Shown: positions 14,804-46,098 of the stretch, one piece after another | Numbering within the stretch: position 1 is the stretch's first letter | Layout: every line of letters starts with the position of its first letter | Sequence record: PZ495249.1 | DNA length: 64,000 nt | Reading direction: 5' to 3' (one strand) | Origin: a phage | Program-made: the position numbers and the translations under genes | The notes under the pieces: model-generated | The model's database searches: none | What the model saw: only the letters and a program-made list of their open reading frames with translations | Told to the model about the DNA's origin: nothing

Positions 14804-16897
14804 TTATCTGCGACGAGTAGACCAAGGCTGAGCGAAGGAAGCCCTTGAACTGTTTTGCAGTTTTCCGTATCCGGTGGTTGCTCCCATCGGTGTAGGAATG
14901 GCTACAGCTTTGAATACTTGCTCTTTTGACAATGTGTTGAAGCATGATGCCGCAGCATCGGGAATATCGTCTTTAAGCGTTGCGGTAGAACGTTCCCCGT
15001 TGAACGATTCGAGTTCTTTGTAAAAGTGATCCAAAGTCTCTTTGTTCGGGAATGATTCTTCAACGATGTAAACGAAACCATTCTGACATGCACTACTGAA
15101 CGGCATGAAACGCTGGAGCTTCTTCTTGTTACCAGGCATTGCGTCCGGCTTAACAATGAATCCCTCTGCGATCAATTTCTTCGCTGACTCGGTGTATTCA
15201 ATTAAACCTGCACCAGATGGATCTTTCGGTAACACTACCGTCACTTCATCACCATCAATTTTACATTGCTGGAGAATCAGATTATCACGATCACCTGGTA
15301 GGCGACGGAATCGACCAAAGATCTTGCTGTCTTTATCCTTAGCGTCATAATCATAATCACCAAAGATATAAATATTCCCGTCCGAGTCTTTCGCCATCTT
15401 AACAGATGTTGTATAGTCAGGGTAACGATAAGATTCAGTTGGAACAGAAACAGCCTTATCCCATGCTCGCATGTATTTCAGGTTGTTTGGCAGATCTGCA
15501 AACTTGATTACGTTCAGCCATTCGCGCTGGAAGAAACTCTCTTCTTGCGCACGAGCAAACCAGCAACCATCCAGAAGCTGTGCTCTCTTAACCGCAGTCT
15601 GAGATTTCAGAGCAGCAAGATATTTAGGGTTGAGGCGAATCAATTCAGGGTTATCGAAGATTGTACCACCGATGAACACGAAACTCTGTGGTTCAATGTC
15701 AACCATCTCTCCGGTGTTTGGGTTGATGATTTGACAGTTGTCAGGATACTTCTCTTTGAGTTCTTCTGCTGTCTCAGCAAATACTGGTTCATCTTGAACG
15801 ATGATGAAGTAAAGCTGCTTACCGCACATATCTTCACGAGGGAATCCCGCTTCATCCAGATATGGCAACACCCAATTCAATACCCAACTATCTGCATCAG
15901 GGTTACAGGTGCAAAGCATGAATGACGTTTCAGATTCAGAACGAAGACGACCAAGCAGGTATAGGAATTCATACTGTGTGAAGTGTGTCAATTCGTCGAA
16001 ACCAATCATAGAATACTGTGTACCCTGATGGTTAGTCTCTGCTGTTACGTTATCATTCTCTAAGTGGTCAAACTTGAGCGTACCACCTTTCGTTGCTCTG
16101 AATTCCATCTCCATTGCCTGTTCACGAACGTGCGGGCGTAGTGGAGAATATAGTTTCTTAGCCTCAGAGAACAAGCCCCCTGGTTTACGGTGAGCAGTGG
16201 TATTCTTACGGAATAAGATTCCCCCGAAGAGAGGATCTTTGTATGCGTATTTAAGCGCCTTTAAAAGCAGTAGGCGAGACTTACCGCTATTGCCAGTAAC
16301 GAAGATGTGATCGCCACGTCTAAAGACAACATAGCTACTTGGAGTTTCAAAACAGTATTTCTTATCATCGGTTGTCATTACCTCGTGAATTTTCAGGTGA
16401 GTGCTTGGCTTACCTTGAATGTTAAACGGTACACGCTTTCCAAACGGGTTTTCAATATATCCTCTGAGAGGATGCCCTGCTTGTTGTAACGCGATCAGAT
16501 CCCCAACAAGGATCTCGAAATGCTTCTTGGATTTCTTCTTCTTGTAGAATACAAATCGGTGTTCCATACTCAATTCTTGGAATACACCAACACCATTCGT
16601 AATACGATGTAAGTTGTCACTTGTTTCATGTTCTACGAAATACGGTGAAGTTAGTTCAAGACGTTTATTACGAGGATTGTATTGATAAATATCCTCTCCT
16701 GAATATCCGCTGATTGGCTTCCAGCCATCCACTGTCAGATATTCTGTTTCTGCACTGACACATCCCGCAGCCCCACCGTAAATCATTAGCTCCGGCATTA
16801 AATCCATCGCCAGTGTTTGTTTACCTGGTTGTGCTTTTACTTCAATGTCAGCATCTGCCAACGACATATTGGCCTTAGCTTTTGGTGTCCTTGCCAC
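14804..16897 (-). CDS. terminase large subunit, intein-containing precursor, 697 aa
   Basis: Removing residues 46-203 gives GGAAG-SGKS (Walker A GxxxxGKS); Walker-B-like IGFDE downstream; position ahead of portal. Confidence 0.65.
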   Translation of the reverse strand: MARTPKAKANMSLADADIEVKAQPGKQTLAMDLMPELMIYGGAAGCVSAETEYLTVDGWKPISGYSGEDIYQYNPRNKRLELTSPYFVEHETSDNLHRITNGVGVFQELSMEHRFVFYKKKKSKKHFEILVGDLIALQQAGHPLRGYIENPFGKRVPFNIQGKPSTHLKIHEVMTTDDKKYCFETPSSYVVFRRGDHIFVTGNSGKSRLLLLKALKYAYKDPLFGGILFRKNTTAHRKPGGLFSEAKKLYSPLRPHVREQAMEMEFRATKGGTLKFDHLENDNVTAETNHQGTQYSMIGFDELTHFTQYEFLYLLGRLRSESETSFMLCTCNPDADSWVLNWVLPYLDEAGFPREDMCGKQLYFIIVQDEPVFAETAEELKEKYPDNCQIINPNTGEMVDIEPQSFVFIGGTIFDNPELIRLNPKYLAALKSQTAVKRAQLLDGCWFARAQEESFFQREWLNVIKFADLPNNLKYMRAWDKAVSVPTESYRYPDYTTSVKMAKDSDGNIYIFGDYDYDAKDKDSKIFGRFRRLPGDRDNLILQQCKIDGDEVTVVLPKDPSGAGLIEYTESAKKLIAEGFIVKPDAMPGNKKKLQRFMPFSSACQNGFVYIVEESFPNKETLDHFYKELESFNGERSTATLKDDIPDAAASCFNTLSKEQVFKAVAIPTPMGATTGYGKLQNSSRASFAQPWSTRRR
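16289..16762 (-). mobile_element. mini-intein (158 aa) inserted in the terminase P-loop
   Basis: Insert begins with Cys (CVSAETEYLTVDGWKPI) and ends with Asn followed by Ser (HIFVTGN|SGKS), splitting the Walker A motif. Confidence 0.55.
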
Positions 16898-18449: not shown

Positions 18450-18524
18450 TGGTTGTAGCAGATGGAATCGAACCATCATCAATCGGTTATCAGCCGAACG
18501 TATTAGCCGTTATACTATGCCACA
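18450..18524 (-). tRNA. tRNA-Ile (anticodon GAU)
   Basis: Encoded CCA, 7-bp acceptor, T-arm GATGG-AATCGAA-CCATC, anticodon loop reads CUGAUAA. Confidence 0.55.
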
Positions 18525-18530
18525 ATTGTT

Positions 18531-18613
18531 TGGCATCCAGGTGAGGAATCTAACCCCTTGAAACTGGTTTTGGAGGCCAGCAACGGGAACACCCATTTTT
18601 AATCTACCCAGAT
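18531..18613 (-). tRNA. degenerate tRNA-like element or pseudo-tRNA
   Basis: Preceded by the ATTGTTTGG boundary motif; acceptor stem possible with two G.U pairs; T-loop degenerate (AATCTAA); no clean anticodon arm. Confidence 0.2.
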
Positions 18614-18619
18614 ATTGTT

Positions 18620-18695
18620 TGGAGGCGGGAGCCGGAATCGAACCGACCTGCGACAAGCATATGAAACTTGTGAGTTCCCAGAACTCTATCCCGCA
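18620..18695 (-). tRNA. tRNA-Met (anticodon CAU)
   Basis: CCA encoded; T-arm GCCGG-AATCGAA-CCGAC; anticodon loop UUCAUAU; position 1-72 appears mismatched. Confidence 0.5.
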
Positions 18696-18699
18696 CTTT

Positions 18700-18775
18700 T
18701 GGTTGATAGTAAGAGAATCAAACTCTTCTCACAACGCCGTATGAAAGCGTCCGAAACATCAGCTTCACACTATCA
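18700..18775 (-). tRNA. tRNA with CAU anticodon (Met, fMet or Ile-lysidine)
   Basis: Perfect acceptor (TGATAGT/ACTATCA), T-arm AAGAG-AATCAAA-CTCTT, anticodon loop UUCAUAC. Confidence 0.5.
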
Positions 18776-18776
18776 A

Positions 18777-19040
18777 TTAAACACGATGGATTATTTTAAC
18801 TGTCTCACCCTTATCATTCATAAGGTAGGCACTTTCATTCCTATGAATAAAGTCCGTAGAGTTGCCACTAATGACACTTGCAATAACACCATCCAGCTTA
18901 TCATAACCTTCAAAATGATATTGGATGTGTATATTTCCATCAAGTTCTATATAATGTTCTTCTTCATCTACCTCGTAAGGTACTGAGTCATAAATTTTTG
19001 TCCCTTTGGGGAACTTGCGAACTATTTTCAATGTATACAT
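18777..19040 (-). CDS. hypothetical protein, 87 aa, inside the tRNA array
   Basis: ORF with good SD (GAAGGAAATACT-ATG); no recognisable motif. Confidence 0.4.
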   Translation of the reverse strand: MYTLKIVRKFPKGTKIYDSVPYEVDEEEHYIELDGNIHIQYHFEGYDKLDGVIASVISGNSTDFIHRNESAYLMNDKGETVKIIHRV

Positions 19041-19124
19041 AGTATTTCCTTCGTAGTGTTTATATTAGTAATATGCCGTCCCAAGCCGAACGGCGATTAG
19101 TGTTTTAGCTTGGCATTGATAATA

Positions 19125-19199
19125 TGGTACTTCCTGGAGGAATCGAACCACCGACGCTCACCTTGTAAGGATGACGTTCTACCATTGAACTAAGGAAGT
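19125..19199 (-). tRNA. tRNA-Val (anticodon UAC)
   Basis: CCA encoded; perfect acceptor ACTTCCT/AGGAAGT; T-loop AATCGAA; anticodon loop CUUACAA. Confidence 0.55.
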
Positions 19200-19272
19200 A
19201 TGGCGGGGATTTTCCGCACTGTCTATCGCGATATGGACTCGGACAGTGTTCTCGGCTAAATACCCCATTGTT

Positions 19273-19359
19273 TGGTACATCAGGTCAGACTCGAACTGAC
19301 ACGCCCTCACGAGCACTGGAACCTAAATCCAGGGCGTCTACCAATTTCGCCACTGATGC
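19273..19359 (-). tRNA. tRNA-Leu (anticodon UAG), type II
   Basis: 87 nt with long variable arm; T-arm GTCAG-ACTCGAA-CTGAC; anticodon stem CTGGA/TCCAG; loop UUUAGGU. Confidence 0.55.
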
Positions 19360-19367
19360 ATTTAATT

Positions 19368-19444
19368 TGGTGGAGAAGTGGAGAATCGAACTCCATACTC
19401 GAAGGTGCAAACCTCGTGTTTTAACCGAATATTACTACATCCCC
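19368..19444 (-). tRNA. tRNA-Ala (anticodon UGC)
   Basis: CCA encoded; T-arm TGGAG-AATCGAA-CTCCA; anticodon loop UUUGCAC. Confidence 0.45.
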
Positions 19445-19506
19445 AATTTGTATACACTACACAGAAGATAGGTCTGATTGCCTCGGCAGTTGCCGTAGTG
19501 TTTATC

Positions 19507-25244: not shown

Positions 25245-26942
25245 CTATTTCACCTCAATCAGATGATTCATAACCTCTTTATCCAGACGCGCACGAATAT
25301 CGTTGAAATCTTCATCTCGACCGTTCACCTGCGGAATCAGCACATCTCCGTTACGGAAGATTGGCTGCAACAGGTTATCTTCATCGTTGATCTCGTTGAA
25401 GGAGATGTTGTCAACCTGACGGATAACACCATCGTCACCACGAACAACTTTGATGAAGCCTTTCGCAGAGCGTTTACCTGGATCAGTTTTCGGCTCTTTG
25501 CTCACCATGATTTCGTAATCGTCAATGAAGCAACCAGTAGCTTTCACAGCAATACCGAAGGTATCACGAGTGTTGAACTGGTAGGTGAAGCTACCAACAC
25601 CGAATACGATGTTTGAGGAAGCAAAACCGTTACGTTTCAGACGAGACAGAATTTCAATCTCACGCTGAACAGTGATTGAATCACCGTAAATCATGCCGAT
25701 ATGAGTATCCAGCACTTTGTAACCTTTGTTGTTCACTTCACCACCGAAGATTTCCCACAGGATCTGGATAGAACCTACCGCCTCATGGCGTGGAATCTCA
25801 CGGTCTTCGTCGATCAGCCAGTAAATATTCTCTTCTTTCAGGAACGCAACTTCTGTCAGGATATGACGAGAAGTGTTAATGAAGTGTTCACGATTCTCGA
25901 ACTCTTCAATATGATAACCAGCAACAACATGTACCGGATTACCTGAGTCAGGGCGAATAACCAGGCGACCATCACGAGCCATAATCTCTTCTTTCAGTTC
26001 GCTCAGGATGCGAGTCAGTACAGTCCAGTAATCGTAGGAGTCAGCAACGTAAGAGCAGAAACCTTTAGGAACCACTTTGGTAATAAAGTGCAGCAGGAAT
26101 TCTTTCTCTGCAAGATAACGGAGGCCATCAACATCACCTGCGAGGTGAGGGAAATGCTCTTCGAGATCTTTTACGATACGACTGATGTTTGTAGTTGCCA
26201 CAGAGTGCTCAGACGCAGGGATACTACCAGCAACGAAATCATCTTCATCAATACCGTAGTATTCGTAAACCGCGTCGATTGCCAGAATGTTATCTGTACC
26301 AGTGAACGCTGCCAGGTGAGCGATACCGCTCTTATAGCCGTCTTCAATACAAGATAAACCGCGCAAACTGAAATCGTGACACTGGAAATTAACGTGATCC
26401 ACATTGTCACAAGTTGCCAGTGCATATGACATTGCCACACGCTTGTACTGGAACGCAGCAGTTGCGTTGGTGATCGCTTTCCAGCTTTCGGTTGACATTA
26501 CGGTTTCAACGTAGTTAGTCACCCAGAAGAATTTCTCAATCGTATTGTGAATGGTATAAACCGGAACACCAATCGGAGACAGAATACCTTCTGGCAGAGC
26601 ACGAATTTCCAGAGGCAGGTAGCCTAAATCGTGCAGTTCACCCCAACATTCAGCGCTTGGCGCAGATTCACCGAGTGATTTTTTAGCCATGCGATCAAAA
26701 CGCTTAACGGCTGCTTCTCGCTTCATCTTGAAGAATTTCTTCCACATGCCTACCATTGAGTCCATCACCATACGGCGGAAGCCGATGACGATAACACCGC
26801 GAGCATTTTTATCTGCGTAATGCGCAAAGTTCTTGTCATTACGTGGAGTCAGGTTAGAGAAGATCAGTTTAGTGTTTGGATTGTACATTGGCTTGTGACC
26901 AGGTTTGTACCAATCGGCAGCAGACGGTGCATAAATTTCCAT
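25245..26942 (-). CDS. nicotinamide phosphoribosyltransferase family protein (NAMPT/NadV-like; candidate Namat of an NAD+ reconstitution pathway), 565 aa
   Basis: Length and motifs typical of NAMPT-family enzymes (GSIPASEHS, IRPDSGNP, GMIYGDSI, FGVGSFTYQ); adjacent to a PRPP-synthetase-like gene. Confidence 0.7.
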   Translation of the reverse strand: MEIYAPSAADWYKPGHKPMYNPNTKLIFSNLTPRNDKNFAHYADKNARGVIVIGFRRMVMDSMVGMWKKFFKMKREAAVKRFDRMAKKSLGESAPSAECWGELHDLGYLPLEIRALPEGILSPIGVPVYTIHNTIEKFFWVTNYVETVMSTESWKAITNATAAFQYKRVAMSYALATCDNVDHVNFQCHDFSLRGLSCIEDGYKSGIAHLAAFTGTDNILAIDAVYEYYGIDEDDFVAGSIPASEHSVATTNISRIVKDLEEHFPHLAGDVDGLRYLAEKEFLLHFITKVVPKGFCSYVADSYDYWTVLTRILSELKEEIMARDGRLVIRPDSGNPVHVVAGYHIEEFENREHFINTSRHILTEVAFLKEENIYWLIDEDREIPRHEAVGSIQILWEIFGGEVNNKGYKVLDTHIGMIYGDSITVQREIEILSRLKRNGFASSNIVFGVGSFTYQFNTRDTFGIAVKATGCFIDDYEIMVSKEPKTDPGKRSAKGFIKVVRGDDGVIRQVDNISFNEINDEDNLLQPIFRNGDVLIPQVNGRDEDFNDIRARLDKEVMNHLIEVK

Positions 26943-27011
26943 TTGTTTCTCCTTTCTCTTGTTTGTTTCGATGAGGAGAAGATTAAGTTATCCTCTCCAC
27001 AAAGTCAACAC

Positions 27012-27911
27012 TTATTTGTAATTTTTACGAAGATTGCCGTTCAGAATGAAATTCTGGAGCGCTTGTTGGTTTAACACCAGTTTACCTGTCTCGTCAACAT
27101 TATTCTCCCACACATTGAAAGAATGGATGCAATCAAAGTGCTCATTTAGTTCTTTCATACCCTTAGAGAAGATACCGTGGGTAACGAACAGTTCAATCTT
27201 ACCAGCGTTACGTTCACGCAATACTTTGGCAAGCTCAATGAAAGTACGACCACCATCGCAGATATCATCCACGATCATCAAATTCTTACCGCAGAAGTCC
27301 TCGACGTTGATGTTGGTCTTGACAATATCTCCGGTCTTCGTATCACGGATTTTCTCTGCACAGTGTACAATGAGTTGCATTGGTTTAGCCAGTTTGAAGA
27401 TTTTCTTCAAGGCTCCACCGTCTGGACTAACCAGATCAAACTCTTCCATACGGAGTTTCCAGTTAATCGCGAACATTGCAATCTCTTCTTGTGGGATAAC
27501 AAACAAGTTATGGATTACAGCCGGAGTTACATCACTGTGCGGATCAGCAACAGTCACACGGTCAAAGTTAAGGTTGTTAAGTGCTTCTGCAAACGCACCG
27601 ATACCATTGGCTTCACCTGGTTCACACACTCGGTCTTGTCGAGCATATGGCACATAGAGCATAACAAGCTCTGTTGTGTGAGGGATGAATTTAAGAATGT
27701 TATCAATTGCATTCTTAGTCATCAGCAACACCATGAAGTCATTACCTGATCTTACTTCGTGATGGATAATCACACGAGAACCTGGTTCAGTTAATGCAAT
27801 CATCGTGTCTGCATCAACACGTACATGTTCTTCTCCGCCAGAGAAGGTGAATGTTTTGATTGGTACAGGATAAACTTCACTGTTGTGTGGGTGCATGATA
27901 TCAATCTTCAT
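27012..27911 (-). CDS. ribose-phosphate pyrophosphokinase family protein (Prs-like; candidate Adps), about 300 aa
   Basis: PRPP-binding-loop-like LMIVDDICDGGRTF; start placed at MKIDIM because the longer track ORF overlaps the upstream gene. Confidence 0.65.
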   Translation of the reverse strand: MKIDIMHPHNSEVYPVPIKTFTFSGGEEHVRVDADTMIALTEPGSRVIIHHEVRSGNDFMVLLMTKNAIDNILKFIPHTTELVMLYVPYARQDRVCEPGEANGIGAFAEALNNLNFDRVTVADPHSDVTPAVIHNLFVIPQEEIAMFAINWKLRMEEFDLVSPDGGALKKIFKLAKPMQLIVHCAEKIRDTKTGDIVKTNINVEDFCGKNLMIVDDICDGGRTFIELAKVLRERNAGKIELFVTHGIFSKGMKELNEHFDCIHSFNVWENNVDETGKLVLNQQALQNFILNGNLRKNYK

Positions 27912-28113
27912 TGTCTTCCTCCTCTTCTTCAATTTCTTCAATTTCACTTAAACGATCAAGAATTGTCTGAGCCTGGTCCCAGAGAGCATCATAGGCTCTA
28001 CGCTCACGAGGAGATAGCTGTGAAGGTCTGAAATCATCTTGGTACATCTTATCAATAATATCTTGCATATCGTTCGATGTATTCTCGAACATACAATAAC
28101 TCATGTTTGACAT
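27901..28113 (-). CDS. small acidic protein, 70 aa
   Basis: ORF upstream of the Prs-like gene; C-terminal EIEEIEEEEEDNED. Confidence 0.35.
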   Translation of the reverse strand: MSNMSYCMFENTSNDMQDIIDKMYQDDFRPSQLSPRERRAYDALWDQAQTILDRLSEIEEIEEEEEDNED

Positions 28114-42396: not shown

Positions 42397-44646
42397 GTGA
42401 TTCGATATGTAACTAAATCCAACGGCAAGAAAGAAGAGTTTAATCCAGAGAAACTTCGTAAATGGTCGGAGTTTGCTGCGGGTAAACTTAACTGGTCGGA
42501 AATTGAGTTAGAAGCTGTTAAACGTTGTTACGATGGTGTGTCCACTCGTGATCTGCATAAAGCAATGATCTCTGCGTGTATTGACAAGAAAACCCAAGCG
42601 TACAGCGATATGGCTGGTCGATTACTTCTCGGTATGATTTACAAACAGGCGCATGGGGGATACCACAGTATCCCTTCCCTGAATGAGTTCTATAAAGATA
42701 TGGTGAGCCGAGGCCACTGGATCAAGATGGACTATACCGACGAAGAAATCAAAGAGATCGGCAAGATCGTTAAACACGATAAGAACCTTGGGTACGGTTA
42801 TTCTGTACTTCGTCAAATGTCAGATAAATACCTGGTGAAAGATGCCGTGAACGATATTGTTCACGAATCTCCTCAGTTCCTGTTTATTGGTGTTGCGATG
42901 AAGGTAATGGAGATTCAGCCGAAGGAACGACGCATTGAAGATATTAAGCGACTGTATACCTATGTCAGTGATCTTAAAATCAACCTGCCGTCACCTTATC
43001 TGACGACACTGCGTACTCCGATCCCTGGTAGTGCTTCCTGCTGTCTGTTCCGCGCAGACGACACAGCAGAATCACTGGCAATTGCAAACTACTTGGCACA
43101 CGAGTATACTCTGAATAACGCTGGTATTGGTGTTAACCTCCAGACTCGTGCAACGGGGCAGGGCGTTAAGAACAACCGTATTATCCACGGTGGACTACTT
43201 CCTTACCTGAAATGGATGGAAGATAGCGTAGGTGCATCGAAACAGGCAAGTCGTGGTGGTAGTGCTACCGTCACATACACAATCTTGGAACCAGACTTCG
43301 AAGACTTGATCCGAATCAAGAACCCGACAACTCCGGTTGACAAGCGTGTAGATAAATTAGATTATTCAGTCGTGGTTAACCGTTCCTTCTTACGCCGAGC
43401 AGCAAAAGGTGAAGAATGGATGCTGGTAAGCTGTGATGATGCTCCAGAACTCTACGAAGCACTCTACAAAAGTGAAGAAGAGTTTGATGAGGTTTATGAT
43501 CGTGTTAGTCGTAAGCGTATCAAGAAAAAATTCGTTAAGGCGCGTGACCTGCTGACCGAGATTATTGTTCAACGTGCAGAGACAGGACGTATTTATATGT
43601 TCTTCGCTGATAACGTAAACAATCACACACCGTTTACTGATACTGTATATCAGTCAAATCTGTGTCAGGAAATCTTCCTGCCGACGAAAGCATTCCATAA
43701 GATGACGGATCTTTTCACTGGGGAAAATACCGAGGATCAGGAATTAGCTCTGTGCTTCCTATCTTCTATCGTGGCTGGTCGAGTTAAACCAGAAGAATAC
43801 GAAGATGTAGCCTACTACACCGTATTGACAATCGACAACGTTATTGAGACAATGGTTTACCCATTCAAACACAATGAGATCACAGCGAAAGCTCGTCGCT
43901 CCATCGGTGTTGGGATTACAAACCTCGCTCATTACCTCGCAAGTAACTTCGCGACATACTCTGATCCTTATGGTAAGAAACTGATTCACGAGTTAGCTGA
44001 ACGCCACTATTTCTGGTTGGCAAGTGCATCTCTTCGCCTGGCGAAAGAGAAAGGTAATGCTGAGTGGATTGACAAAACCAAATGGCCTCAAGGTTGGCTA
44101 CCAATTGATACCTATTCAAAAGCGGTAGATGATATTGGCAACTTCGAGTTGAAAAACGATTGGGAAGGATTACGCCAAGAGATTATCGCTCAGGGTGGTA
44201 TCCGCAACAGCGTATTAACCGCTATTGCACCAAATGAATCAAGTAGCCTGGTGAGTAACACTACCAACTCTGTATATCCAGTACGTGACACAATCATGTA
44301 CAAGCAGAGCCAGAAAGGTAACGTGTTGTTTATTGTGCCGGATTACGAAAAGCTGAAAACCGTTTATCAGAGCGCATGGGATACCCCTGCGAAAGATATT
44401 GCTGAAATGTACGGATTGTTAACCAAATTCATGGATCAGGGTATTTCCTGTGACGAATGGGCTGACTATTCTAAAATGGAGGGTGGTCGTCTGTCTATTA
44501 AAGCTCAGATGCAATTCATCTTCACGTTTGCCAAATTAGGCGGTAAGTCTCTGTACTACTTGAATAGTAGAACCAAATCAGCCGAATCTCTCGCCCAAGA
44601 GGATTCCGGTTTTGGTGAAGATGGTTGCGAAGCGTGTAAGATGTAA
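42397..44646 (+). CDS. nrdA: ribonucleotide reductase large subunit (class Ia NrdA-like), 749 aa
   Basis: N-terminal ATP-cone (RYVTKSNGKKEEFNPEKL); typical length; C-terminal Cys pair (CEACKM); nrdB follows. Confidence 0.8.
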   Translation: MIRYVTKSNGKKEEFNPEKLRKWSEFAAGKLNWSEIELEAVKRCYDGVSTRDLHKAMISACIDKKTQAYSDMAGRLLLGMIYKQAHGGYHSIPSLNEFYKDMVSRGHWIKMDYTDEEIKEIGKIVKHDKNLGYGYSVLRQMSDKYLVKDAVNDIVHESPQFLFIGVAMKVMEIQPKERRIEDIKRLYTYVSDLKINLPSPYLTTLRTPIPGSASCCLFRADDTAESLAIANYLAHEYTLNNAGIGVNLQTRATGQGVKNNRIIHGGLLPYLKWMEDSVGASKQASRGGSATVTYTILEPDFEDLIRIKNPTTPVDKRVDKLDYSVVVNRSFLRRAAKGEEWMLVSCDDAPELYEALYKSEEEFDEVYDRVSRKRIKKKFVKARDLLTEIIVQRAETGRIYMFFADNVNNHTPFTDTVYQSNLCQEIFLPTKAFHKMTDLFTGENTEDQELALCFLSSIVAGRVKPEEYEDVAYYTVLTIDNVIETMVYPFKHNEITAKARRSIGVGITNLAHYLASNFATYSDPYGKKLIHELAERHYFWLASASLRLAKEKGNAEWIDKTKWPQGWLPIDTYSKAVDDIGNFELKNDWEGLRQEIIAQGGIRNSVLTAIAPNESSSLVSNTTNSVYPVRDTIMYKQSQKGNVLFIVPDYEKLKTVYQSAWDTPAKDIAEMYGLLTKFMDQGISCDEWADYSKMEGGRLSIKAQMQFIFTFAKLGGKSLYYLNSRTKSAESLAQEDSGFGEDGCEACKM

Positions 44647-44649
44647 TAT

Positions 44650-44676
44650 CAAGGGGCGAAAGCCCCTTTATTTTTC
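44650..44676 (+). terminator. intrinsic terminator after nrdA
   Basis: AGGGGC-GAAA-GCCCCT hairpin followed by TTATTTTTC. Confidence 0.45.
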
Positions 44677-44687
44677 TAAGGAGGATT

Positions 44688-45026
44688 ATGAATTCTATAA
44701 TCGTATTGTCTGGAGTAACAAAGCTATTACCACTCAAGAATTATGTCCTGGTTGATCCAAAAGATTTCACATTAGATTGGTGTTGTCAGTTTATCGGGGG
44801 AATGAATTTTACGAATGCGGAGATCTGGGAGTCTTCTGACTCTAAGGCAACTGCATATACACTCTCCAGAGTAAGAACTTATGGTTCAGAATTTAGTGTG
44901 CTACTGACACAAAGCGTGTGGAATGGTCTGGAAGAATACTATCGAGAACATGGTGTGGAAGAGAGTGAGATAGAAGTGTTAAAATCATGGTGTGATATTG
45001 TGGAGGATTTAAATGGCAGCAATTAA
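44688..45026 (+). CDS. hypothetical protein, 112 aa, between nrdA and nrdB
   Basis: SD TAAGGAGGATT-ATG. Confidence 0.4.
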   Translation: MNSIIVLSGVTKLLPLKNYVLVDPKDFTLDWCCQFIGGMNFTNAEIWESSDSKATAYTLSRVRTYGSEFSVLLTQSVWNGLEEYYREHGVEESEIEVLKSWCDIVEDLNGSN

Positions 45027-46098
45027 TTTACATAACGAAACTTACAAAGAGGGTAAATACCCTGTCTTCTTAGGTGAACAACTGGGGATCTTTGATTCTA
45101 TTAACGTCACCTATCCTGAAATGCATCGTCTTTATAAGCTCCAGAAAGCCCAAGATTGGGATGAAAACGAGGTGAATCTGGATCAGACACGTAAAGACTT
45201 CGTAGCATGTTCTGCAAATAACTACGATGTGATGATCAAAAACCTTTCGTTCCAGTGGGAGAATGATTCCCTGGCGAAATCTATTATCACGTTGTTCGCT
45301 CCTTTCCTGAGTAACAATGAAGCCTGTGCAATGATGATGAAGCAGTCTGAAATTGAAGTGCTTCACGCTCTAACTTACTCTGAAATTATCCGTCAGTGTA
45401 TTCCAAATCCGAACGAAGTGATCGAACAGATTATGGAAAATGACCGTATCTTCCAGCGAATGGGTATTGTGGAAGAAGTCATGTCCGAACTGTACGAAGC
45501 TGGTCACAAGTATGCACTTGGTGAACTGGAAGCAAATGACGATCTGCGTCTACTGATCCTGAAAGGTATGATCGCTCTGATTGGTCTGGAAGGTATTCAG
45601 TTTATCTCTTCCTTCTCTGCAACATTCGCCCTGGCAGAACAGCAACTGTTCGTCGGTGCATGTAAGCTGATTCAGAAAATTATGTTGGATGAGATCTTGC
45701 ATGTTAAGATGGATTATGCTATTATTGACGCACTGATGAAGGAACCAGAGTGGAAGAAAGTTTACGATGAGAACATTGATGAACTGACTGCTATTCTGGA
45801 TACCATTATCGCCCAAGAAGAAGATTGGTGCGACTACCTGTTCAGTGAAGGTCGTGTAATTGTCGGTCTGAATGCTGAACTGTCCAAACAGTGGGTTTAC
45901 TTCAACGCCGCCCCTATCTATCGTCGTCTGAAAATGAAACACAAATTCCGTTCTCCGAAACAAACGCCTCTGGCGTGGATGGATGTGTGGCTCAACCCAG
46001 ACCAGATTCAAGCGGCTGCTCAGGAAATCCAACGTACTGACTACAAACTCAACTCTGCCAATAAAGATGTGGCAGACGATGAAGAATTTGAGTGGTAA
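45013..46098 (+). CDS. nrdB: ribonucleotide reductase small subunit (NrdB-like), 361 aa
   Basis: Ferritin-like helical protein of the right size directly after nrdA; acidic C-terminal tail (DDEEFEW). Confidence 0.75.
   Translation: MAAINLHNETYKEGKYPVFLGEQLGIFDSINVTYPEMHRLYKLQKAQDWDENEVNLDQTRKDFVACSANNYDVMIKNLSFQWENDSLAKSIITLFAPFLSNNEACAMMMKQSEIEVLHALTYSEIIRQCIPNPNEVIEQIMENDRIFQRMGIVEEVMSELYEAGHKYALGELEANDDLRLLILKGMIALIGLEGIQFISSFSATFALAEQQLFVGACKLIQKIMLDEILHVKMDYAIIDALMKEPEWKKVYDENIDELTAILDTIIAQEEDWCDYLFSEGRVIVGLNAELSKQWVYFNAAPIYRRLKMKHKFRSPKQTPLAWMDVWLNPDQIQAAAQEIQRTDYKLNSANKDVADDEEFEW

Follow-up and report, generated by a model that had tools for sequence, protein, structure and literature searches.

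Inteins residing in the ATPase domains of the large terminase subunits (TerL) of phages, at or near the phosphate-binding loop (P-loop), are already well documented (PMC5050341). In mycobacteriophages TerL is the commonest intein host, and the inteins described from it belong to class 1 as well as class 3, occur both as mini-inteins and as endonuclease-bearing forms, and have been shown to splice for selected representatives; one of their insertion sites, TerL6-f, is found in a terminase_6-type TerL (Kelley et al. 2016, PMC5050341). Another described system relevant here is the AceL NrdHF intein, experimentally assigned to class 3, in which Cys124 has to make the first nucleophilic attack and its exchange for Ala or Ser (C124A, C124S) leaves the intein inactive (PMC7891396). 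As for coliphages, a 2024 paper on a phi92-like phage describes them as having no reported inteins, and while surveying the literature we did not encounter any prior description of an intein in phi92, rV5, phAPEC8, Justusliebigvirus or Stephanstirmvirinae. Here we analyse a stretch of 64,000 nucleotides from the phage sequence record PZ495249.1 (the whole stretch is called the window below), whose terL gene contains an insert of 158 codons. As judged from sequence comparisons and a structural model, this insert very probably represents a functional self-splicing intein, predicted to be excised from TerL with ligation of the flanking host parts (exteins).

A reading of the window made from the sequence alone (the sequence-only reading) had proposed that TerL residues 46-203, starting with Cys and ending with Asn followed by Ser, constitute a mini-intein that splits the Walker A P-loop, and this description proved accurate in every detail (16289-16762, minus strand). 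The insert begins CVSAETEYLTVDGWKPI and ends HIFVTGN, whereupon SGKS resumes the host sequence, and Asn158 of the insert directly precedes the +1 nucleophile Ser204 of TerL, in line with the C-terminal Asn followed by Cys, Ser or Thr expected of an intein. Deleting residues 46-203 in silico joins MIYGGAAG to SGKSRLLLL, and the resulting GAAGSGKS fits the Walker A pattern GxxxxGK[ST], as had been claimed. The Pfam family Terminase_6N gives a consistent picture: the precursor is matched only from residue 204 (profile position 8; 68.7 bits) and the in-silico spliced protein at profile positions 1-214, across the junction (75.6 bits, E=5.5e-21), the latter with a weak Terminase_6C match as well. 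NCBIfam recognises the terminase C-terminal domain (TIGR01630) in the precursor. The host protein is a Terminase_6N-type large terminase, which has a full Walker A ATPase along with the C-terminal nuclease only after in-silico splicing. Its open reading frame (ORF) starts with GTG, with AGGAGG 4 nt upstream, and its parts are laid out in the window as follows (HINT stands for the Hedgehog/intein fold; intein residues are numbered from Cys1).

14804..16897, minus strand: ORF of the TerL precursor, 697 amino acids, 79.3 kDa; stop codon at 14804-14806.
16763..16897, minus strand: N-extein, TerL residues 1-45, ending in MIYGGAAG; GAAG, the first half of Walker A, at 16763-16774.
16289..16762, minus strand: predicted mini-intein, TerL residues 46-203, 158 amino acids, 18.3 kDa, HINT fold (sequence, profile and model).
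16760..16762, minus strand: Cys1 (TerL residue 46), first residue of block A; Cys in 185/185 relatives.
16553..16570, minus strand: core of block B (N3), Ser65-Met-Glu-His68-Arg69-Phe70, an SxxH variant of TxxH.
16421..16519, minus strand: linker of 33 residues (intein residues 82-114), occupying the place of the LAGLIDADG domain of full-length relatives.
16349..16357, minus strand: block F (C2), Tyr136-Cys137-Phe138, with Cys137 at position F:4; Cys in 184/185 members.
16289..16297, minus strand: block G (C1), Thr156-Gly157-Asn158 (TerL residues 201-203), with the putative cyclising Asn and with Thr at G:5.
14807..16288, minus strand: C-extein, TerL residues 204-697, remainder of the ATPase plus nuclease domain, from the +1 nucleophile Ser204; Ser204 followed by Gly-Lys-Ser, the second half of Walker A, at 16277-16288.

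The comparison with intein-free terminase alleles that the sequence-only reading had recommended as a check turned out to be informative. In an alignment, the loop is uninterrupted, with the form GG(S/A)AG(S/A)GK(S/T), in the TerLs of Vibrio phage K354 (57% identical to the window TerL), Felixounavirus Si3 and Certrevirus CR3, all three contiguous across the insertion point, and in the TerLs of the window, phi92 and Av-05 the insert sits exactly between the loop Gly and Ser (Gly45 and Ser204 in the window). A tblastn search of phage genomes found the insert in 133 records at 82-90% amino-acid identity, mostly phi92-like and phAPEC8-like coliphages plus Klebsiella phages. Because the insert-carrying records equal the close TerL homologues in number, the insert is taken to be fixed in the subfamily Stephanstirmvirinae. 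TerLs at 60-76% extein identity have mini-inteins of 158-160 amino acids, whose identity to the window intein is 55-61% and whose linker begins with the same KKKKSKKHF, and those at approximately 56-61% extein identity carry endonuclease-bearing inteins of 323-325 amino acids at the same site. A single TerL site is hence found in three states, i.e. empty (K354), occupied by an endonuclease-bearing intein, and occupied by a mini-intein, with the minis co-diverging with their exteins. Such a pattern corresponds to the classical homing cycle, the mini form having since then been inherited vertically.

Two observations on the records compared can be added. The Av-05 intein, located at GGAAG/SGKS (the slash marks the insertion point, here and below), is 241 amino acids long and has a shortened centre, in which the region of the first LAGLIDADG motif of the longer relatives is largely gapped. 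The TerL of this Escherichia phage (Av05_001; L002 2911-4307) is annotated as a protein of 376 amino acids, and multiple stop codons follow the sequence ending in GFDEGRTVCSL; past the intein the gene thus appears to be cut short or disrupted, be it by a frameshift, an intron or an assembly problem. Furthermore, the name 'Campylobacter phage' is given to five of the 133 records with the insert, of which four have a DNA match to terL too, and these five look like mislabelled or contaminant coliphage sequence.

The insert belongs to a family that is easily overlooked. Single-sequence searches of Pfam, NCBIfam and PDB sequences with the 158 residues returned only noise, and a word-indexed protein search with the insert alone gave just five near-identical fragments, an alignment-based repeat being productive; the family was reached via tblastn against phage genomes and then with profiles. 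By tblastn, the N-terminal half of the insert found counterparts inside RtcB proteins from phages of Corynebacterium, Bacillus and Pseudomonas as well as inside the Av-05 TerL, and its C-terminal end found one inside the RecD-like helicase encoded by an Enterocloster phage. The termini of these insertions are DIG/CVDADTEYLTPTGWK...YCFTVTTGFLVLRRSGNVFITGN/CGM in RtcB, AGAG/CVDSETEY...YCFEVESGMLILRRKNNIFITGN/CGKT in the P-loop of the RecD-like helicase, and GGAAG/CLSKDHEV...YCFVTQTGFFVTRLEDCVVVTGN/SGKS in the Av-05 TerL. A profile search of 5.8 billion proteins revealed as hosts TerL (Terminase_3 and Terminase_6N), RtcB, PhoH, Rad51-like proteins, a metallophosphatase and IstB/DnaA-like proteins. 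The element occurs in at least eight unrelated enzyme families, inside catalytic loops, bounded by C...(T/S)GN and a following Cys, Ser or Thr. In an exhaustive HMMER search of 1.84 billion cluster representatives the family counted 14,305 matches with a threshold of E<=1e-3, or 2,615 with one of E<=1e-30; both counts are upper estimates, as the query profile contained some flanking extein columns.

A residue census of the 185 members with both ends delimitable documents how strictly the splice-site signature is kept. Position 1 is Cys in all 185 and F:4 is Cys in 184; the C-terminal triplet is TGN in 169 and SGN in ten (179/185 together), and Thr stands at G:5 in 174 (the 169 TGN members plus those with TKN, TSN, TMN or THN). 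The +1 residue is Cys (95 members), Ser (78) or Thr (12), with no other residue found, and the junctions are mostly P-loops that read GxxG/[CST]GK[ST]. B:12 is V, F, M, I or L in the family, and C1, H68, C137, G157 and N158 are invariant in a set of 36 members. Because the invariant frame of Cys and of Asn followed by Cys, Ser or Thr recurs in many unrelated catalytic loops, and because empty-site alleles exist, we regard the insert as an intein and not a structural domain.

Full-length relatives with a LAGLIDADG domain have in common with the window intein the N-terminal signature CV[SD]xxTE[YF]L..GWK.I and the C-terminal signature YCF....G..V.RR....[IV]TGN/[CS], and are 27-30% identical to it over the splicing domain. 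They differ in being 241-331 amino acids long, with a central LAGLIDADG domain (degenerate in Av-05) instead of the 33-residue linker, and most of them reside in other host proteins and have Cys at +1; the Av-05 intein uses the window's own site GGAAG/SGKS. Among them are RtcB ligases of 703-734 amino acids, each with a 311-317-amino-acid LAGLIDADG intein of this family at VDIG/CGM, the annotation being silent on the intein; an intein also splits the P-loop of a helicase filed as a 'hypothetical protein':

Corynebacterium phage Lederberg gp59 (L001 2285-4396): RtcB.
Pseudomonas phage PS119XW gp279 (L003 2258-4462): RtcB.
Bacillus phage JBP901 gp028 (L005 2279-4402): RtcB.
Enterocloster phage CB473P2 CB473P2_00058 (L004 548-3850): RecD-like helicase of 1100 amino acids, with a 331-amino-acid intein of the family at AGAG/CGKT.

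The metagenomic proteins P0006, P0008 and P0013 contain family members at LEVG/CGIG, with no Pfam annotation on their exteins; LEVG/CGIG resembles motif I of methyltransferases dependent on S-adenosylmethionine, so nucleotide-binding glycine loops other than P-loops may be targeted too.

The predicted structure of the insert points in the same direction. An AlphaFold2 run on the alignment of the 36 family members, with the window sequence first, gave a model that is almost all beta-strand (mean predicted local distance difference test score, pLDDT, 95.2; predicted template-modelling score, pTM, 0.87), and the best 50 matches listed in a Foldseek comparison with the PDB are all inteins, bacterial intein-like (BIL) domains or Hedgehog domains. 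The best match is 6zgq, the AceL NrdHF class 3 split intein (template-modelling score, TM, 0.70-0.74), which is also the single significant match of the family profile among PDB sequences (E=1.5e-8); its overall identity to the window intein is only about 18%. The block B residues Ser65, His68, Arg69 and Phe70 align residue for residue with Ser65, His68, Arg69 and Met70 of AceL NrdHF, in which an SxxH block B is functional, and the functional positions of the two proteins compare as follows.

Position 1: Cys1 in the window intein, Ala1 in AceL NrdHF.
B:7: Ser65 in the window intein, Ser65 in AceL NrdHF.
B:10: His68 in the window intein, His68 in AceL NrdHF.
B:11: Arg69 in the window intein, Arg69 in AceL NrdHF.
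B:12: Phe70 in the window intein, Met70 in AceL NrdHF; both non-Trp.
F:4: Cys137 in the window intein, Cys124 in AceL NrdHF.
G:5: Thr156 in the window intein, Thr144 in AceL NrdHF.
G:6: Gly157 in the window intein, Gly145 in AceL NrdHF; neither with a penultimate His.
G:7: Asn158 in the window intein, Asn146 in AceL NrdHF.
+1: Ser in the window intein, Ser in AceL NrdHF.

In both proteins a Pro stands four residues past the block-F Cys, and both are probably of phage origin. AceL NrdHF differs in being naturally split (98 + 48 amino acids) and encoded by a fractured nrdHF gene with a GIY-YIG gene between the halves, whereas the window intein is contiguous and resides in TerL. Two features of the insert, both absent from the sequence-only reading, stand out from this comparison: there is no penultimate His, and block F has a Cys and block G a Thr as in class 3 inteins. 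At F:4, ordinary class 1 inteins have Asp, and in class 3 the branch-point Cys occupies this position. In AceL NrdHF, Arg69 partly compensates for the absent penultimate His, Thr144 positions His68, and the Cys124 thiol lies 3.0 Å from the scissile carbonyl in a model (PMC7891396); it splices within minutes without a penultimate or a block-F His (PMC7891396; Hoffmann et al. 2021).

Other known systems are less close. The canonical class 3 inteins with the Trp-Cys-Thr (WCT) triplet (MP-Be DnaB, Msm DnaBi1, Mch DnaB1) likewise have Cys at F:4 and Thr at G:5, prefer ATPase P-loops of phage and helicase proteins, and have been proposed to originate from phages, but their structures match the window model less well (6rix and 6bs8, TM 0.53-0.57). 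The mycobacteriophage TerL inteins are similar in sitting in the TerL ATPase domain at or near the P-loop; they inhabit actinobacteriophages rather than enterobacterial myoviruses, and the likeness considered here is that of host domain and intein type. A BIL domain, characterised by a HINT fold with no +1 nucleophile, by variable sites outside catalytic regions and by mainly cleaving, was considered as well and rejected, given the conserved Ser+1, the insertion in the Walker A loop, and BIL structures that are weaker matches than 6zgq.

The sequence-only reading had also noted that no LAGLIDADG or HNH endonuclease block is visible in the insert, and this was borne out. A profile built from 170 full-length family members (299-345 amino acids, window sequence excluded) matched the insert at residues 1-81 (E=3e-20) and 115-158 (E=1.6e-14), skipping profile positions 82-271, i.e. 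the roughly 190 residues of the LAGLIDADG domain. A Pfam scan of TerL gave no endonuclease domain match, and among the 36 family members scanned LAGLIDADG_3 matches are confined to the long ones. The insert thus appears to be a mini-intein reduced to the splicing domain, with the endonuclease gone. The 33-residue linker in its place is confidently folded in the model (strand-helix-strand-strand). Whether it is an endonuclease remnant was considered, as MAFFT put FEILVGDLIAL...HPLRGYIENPFGKR under the region of the second LAGLIDADG helix, and rejected, the best domain score with the 170-member profile being -2.4 bits, which is not significant.

The ratio of non-synonymous to synonymous substitution rates (dN/dS) against phi92 is 0.037 for the intein (with dS about 1.8, near saturation), 0.025 for the C-extein and 0.033 for the ATPase domain, which strongly suggests purifying selection on the intein sequence itself, as would be expected because a loss of splicing would kill the terminase. 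The guanine-cytosine (GC) content of the intein is 0.405 as opposed to 0.451 in the host gene (0.367 versus 0.433 at third codon positions, GC3), the average GC of the window being 0.435, and this lower value may be a faint trace of a foreign origin despite long residence.

The mini-intein proposal is thus favoured by the exact boundaries, the mobility of the element, the HINT fold, the conserved catalytic residues and purifying selection. Several points weigh against it. The number of insert-carrying records (133) equals that of close TerL homologues, which leaves no intein-free allele among the closest TerLs; the penultimate His, common though not obligatory in inteins, is absent from the window intein, G:6 being Gly157; no intein model in the whole Pfam and NCBIfam libraries matches the insert at E<=1, nor does any in Pfam match any of the 36 family members at E<=1e-3; splicing of the window intein and of the other Cys1 family members is a prediction from sequence and model; and the detailed order of acyl transfers, the role of Cys137 included, is one that we infer. 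A penultimate His is needed by many inteins for Asn cyclisation, and Pfam and NCBIfam do contain intein models, e.g. Intein_splicing, Hint_2 and TIGR01445/TIGR01443. That curated models fail to recognise the insert, and that 133/133 close TerL homologues carry it at 82-90% amino-acid identity, would suit a permanent, non-spliced insertion domain of the terminase conserved in the phage subfamily. Such a domain would, however, split the eight-residue Walker A loop, contiguous in intein-free homologues, while having a HINT fold with complete splice-junction residues; the same element occurs in at least eight unrelated enzyme families, always in catalytic loops, and a mere domain offers no reason to keep Cys1, Asn158 and the +1 nucleophile invariant, so we deem this alternative very improbable. 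The sequence-only reading had itself named homologues that keep the 158 residues as a conserved domain as what would speak against it. All 133 close relatives do carry the insert, and to that extent the concern was justified, but distant TerLs either lack it or have the 323-325-amino-acid version; we therefore consider it an intein fixed in a clade and not a structural domain. A phosphate-binding loop of eight residues with 158 inserted ones is not plausibly functional. Because the broken loop could not plausibly work, and because the carrier phages have been isolated on and propagate in E. coli, splicing would almost certainly be required and efficient. The same reasoning bears on the idea of a decayed, splicing-dead intein, with this terL copy being a pseudogene or functioning by some other route. 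The loss of both the penultimate His and the homing endonuclease, and the GC content below that of the exteins (0.405 versus 0.451), could be taken as signs of decay, but a dN/dS as low as 0.037, at dS about 1.8, indicates selection on the intein, the catalytic residues are all intact, and AceL NrdHF splices within minutes with neither the penultimate nor the block-F His. Moreover, phi92 and the BASEL phages, which have the same arrangement, were isolated and propagated on E. coli (host fields of the records), and no second terL was found among the ten scanned ORFs of at least 250 amino acids in the window. A dead intein is, in our view, the least credible of all the alternatives considered here.

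If the insert is a splicing intein, TerL would be translated as a 79-kDa precursor with a broken ATP-binding loop, and the intein would fold and ligate the exteins into a 61-kDa active terminase (GAAGSGKS), leaving an 18-kDa by-product. The predicted masses are 79.3 kDa for the precursor, 61.0 kDa for the ligated TerL and 18.3 kDa for the intein, and the tryptic peptide predicted to span the spliced junction is QTLAMDLMPELMIYGGAAGSGK (2254.65 Da). To begin with, His68 and Ser65 would strain the bond between Gly45 and Cys1, with Cys1 forming a thioester by an N-S acyl shift; the acyl group would then pass to the hydroxyl of Ser+1, with Cys137 (F:4) assisting or possibly relaying it; cyclisation of Asn158, aided presumably by Arg69 and not by a penultimate His, would free the intein; and an O-N shift would form the peptide bond. 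As to its origin, the element may be viewed as the descendant, inherited vertically and devoid of an endonuclease, of a very large intein family that phages carry and that targets nucleotide-binding loops.

To us it seems likelier that Cys1 starts the reaction, as in class 1, and that Cys137 is essential for assisting or relaying, because the family has Cys1 without exception (185/185) while class 3 inteins mostly have a non-nucleophile there. Any scheme with a covalently acylated Cys137 seems to us rather unlikely. One of these is a hybrid in which both invariant cysteines act covalently, with Cys137 handing on the Cys1 thioester to the +1 residue, or with redundant entries of the class 1 and class 3 types; we put it forward tentatively, at the same modest level of belief. 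Were it true, the window family would represent a living Cys1-bearing sister or ancestor of AceL-type class 3 inteins, and a mechanism with a block-F nucleophile would have arisen, separately from the WCT class 3 lineage, when a pre-adapted scaffold simply lost its Cys1. A genuine class 3 route, with Cys137 attacking the Gly45-Cys1 bond directly to give a branched thioester from which the N-extein passes to Ser+1, and with Cys1 not the initiator, is somewhat more doubtful still. It has on its side that the class 3 intein AceL NrdHF is the closest characterised relative by structure and sequence and has in common with the window intein Cys F:4, Thr G:5, Gly G:6, Arg B:11, Ser B:7 and Ser+1, that Cys F:4 is kept in 184/185 family members, and that an N-terminal nucleophile, where present in class 3 inteins, is not required according to a later paper citing Tori & Perler 2011. 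Yet a dispensable position 1 varies (34/37 of the original WCT inteins are without a nucleophile there), which contrasts with Cys1 in 185/185; Cys+1, present in half of the family, is rare in class 3 inteins; and the Trp of the WCT triplet is replaced by Phe70 in the window, although AceL NrdHF, a proven class 3 intein, has Met there. A regulatory role can also be imagined, in which a Cys1-Cys137 disulfide keeps TerL an inactive precursor until reducing conditions prevail, so as to time or tune packaging. The insert has exactly two cysteines, both essentially invariant, which by homology to 6zgq may adjoin in the active site, and disulfide control via a block-F Cys has been described for the Mycobacterium smegmatis DnaBi1 intein (PMC6195587). 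The E. coli cytoplasm is reducing, however, and catalysis explains the conservation of both cysteines equally well; we consider such a disulfide conceivable but unsupported, and improbable.

The insert is of consequence for how these phages are annotated. The records of phi92 (NC_023693.1), BASEL phages (e.g. EmilieFrey, MZ501063.1) and KMB37 (OR525700.1) present a plain terminase of 695 amino acids with no intein feature, the KMB37 record labelling the gene 'large terminase with endonuclease', and the record of Klebsiella phage FKP3 (PP895363.1) has two 'terminase large subunit' features under the match, the intein being unannotated. For these phages, which are candidates for therapy, 158 foreign residues enter into any terminase tree, size comparison or structure prediction, and the curated libraries of hidden Markov models (HMMs) miss a family of thousands of sequence clusters. 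The finding is biologically unsurprising; what makes it interesting is chiefly the gap in annotation, how large the family is, the odd catalytic signature and the use of the family as a probe of how class 1 chemistry passes into class 3. Being compact (18 kDa), having two cysteines, coming from an enterobacterial phage group and being akin to the fast-splicing AceL NrdHF, the intein could offer an accessible system for studying that evolution, and possibly a protein-ligation tool.

The genomic context of the insert is ordinary for the group, with portal, capsid and sheath-like genes downstream of terL and spanin-like ORFs upstream. The nucleotide identity of terL to that of phi92-like phages (Justusliebigvirus) is approximately 80%, and over its left 25 kb the window has 78-79% identity to members of Stephanstirmvirinae from Klebsiella and Escherichia; because of these values, we assign the window to a distinct member of this subfamily. 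When all six frames of the window were searched with the family profile, no further copies of the element came up, and the Pfam domain matches of its NrdA and NrdB are uninterrupted (ribonucleotide reductase is a frequent intein host in related phages). A DNA ligase gene is present in the window as well. Genes of the NAD-salvage type (nicotinate phosphoribosyltransferase, NAPRTase, family and phosphoribosyl-pyrophosphate, PRPP, synthetase-like) and NrdA and NrdB genes are found at 25245-27947 (minus strand) and 42397-46098 (plus strand). Just upstream of the spanin/terL block lies an array of 23 tRNA genes (18450-23838, minus strand) interleaved with small ORFs, e.g. at 18777-19040. The array includes three tRNA-Met(CAT) genes and, at 22066-22140, a tRNA with the anticodon CTA, of the amber-suppressor type, which ARAGORN labels 'Pyl'.

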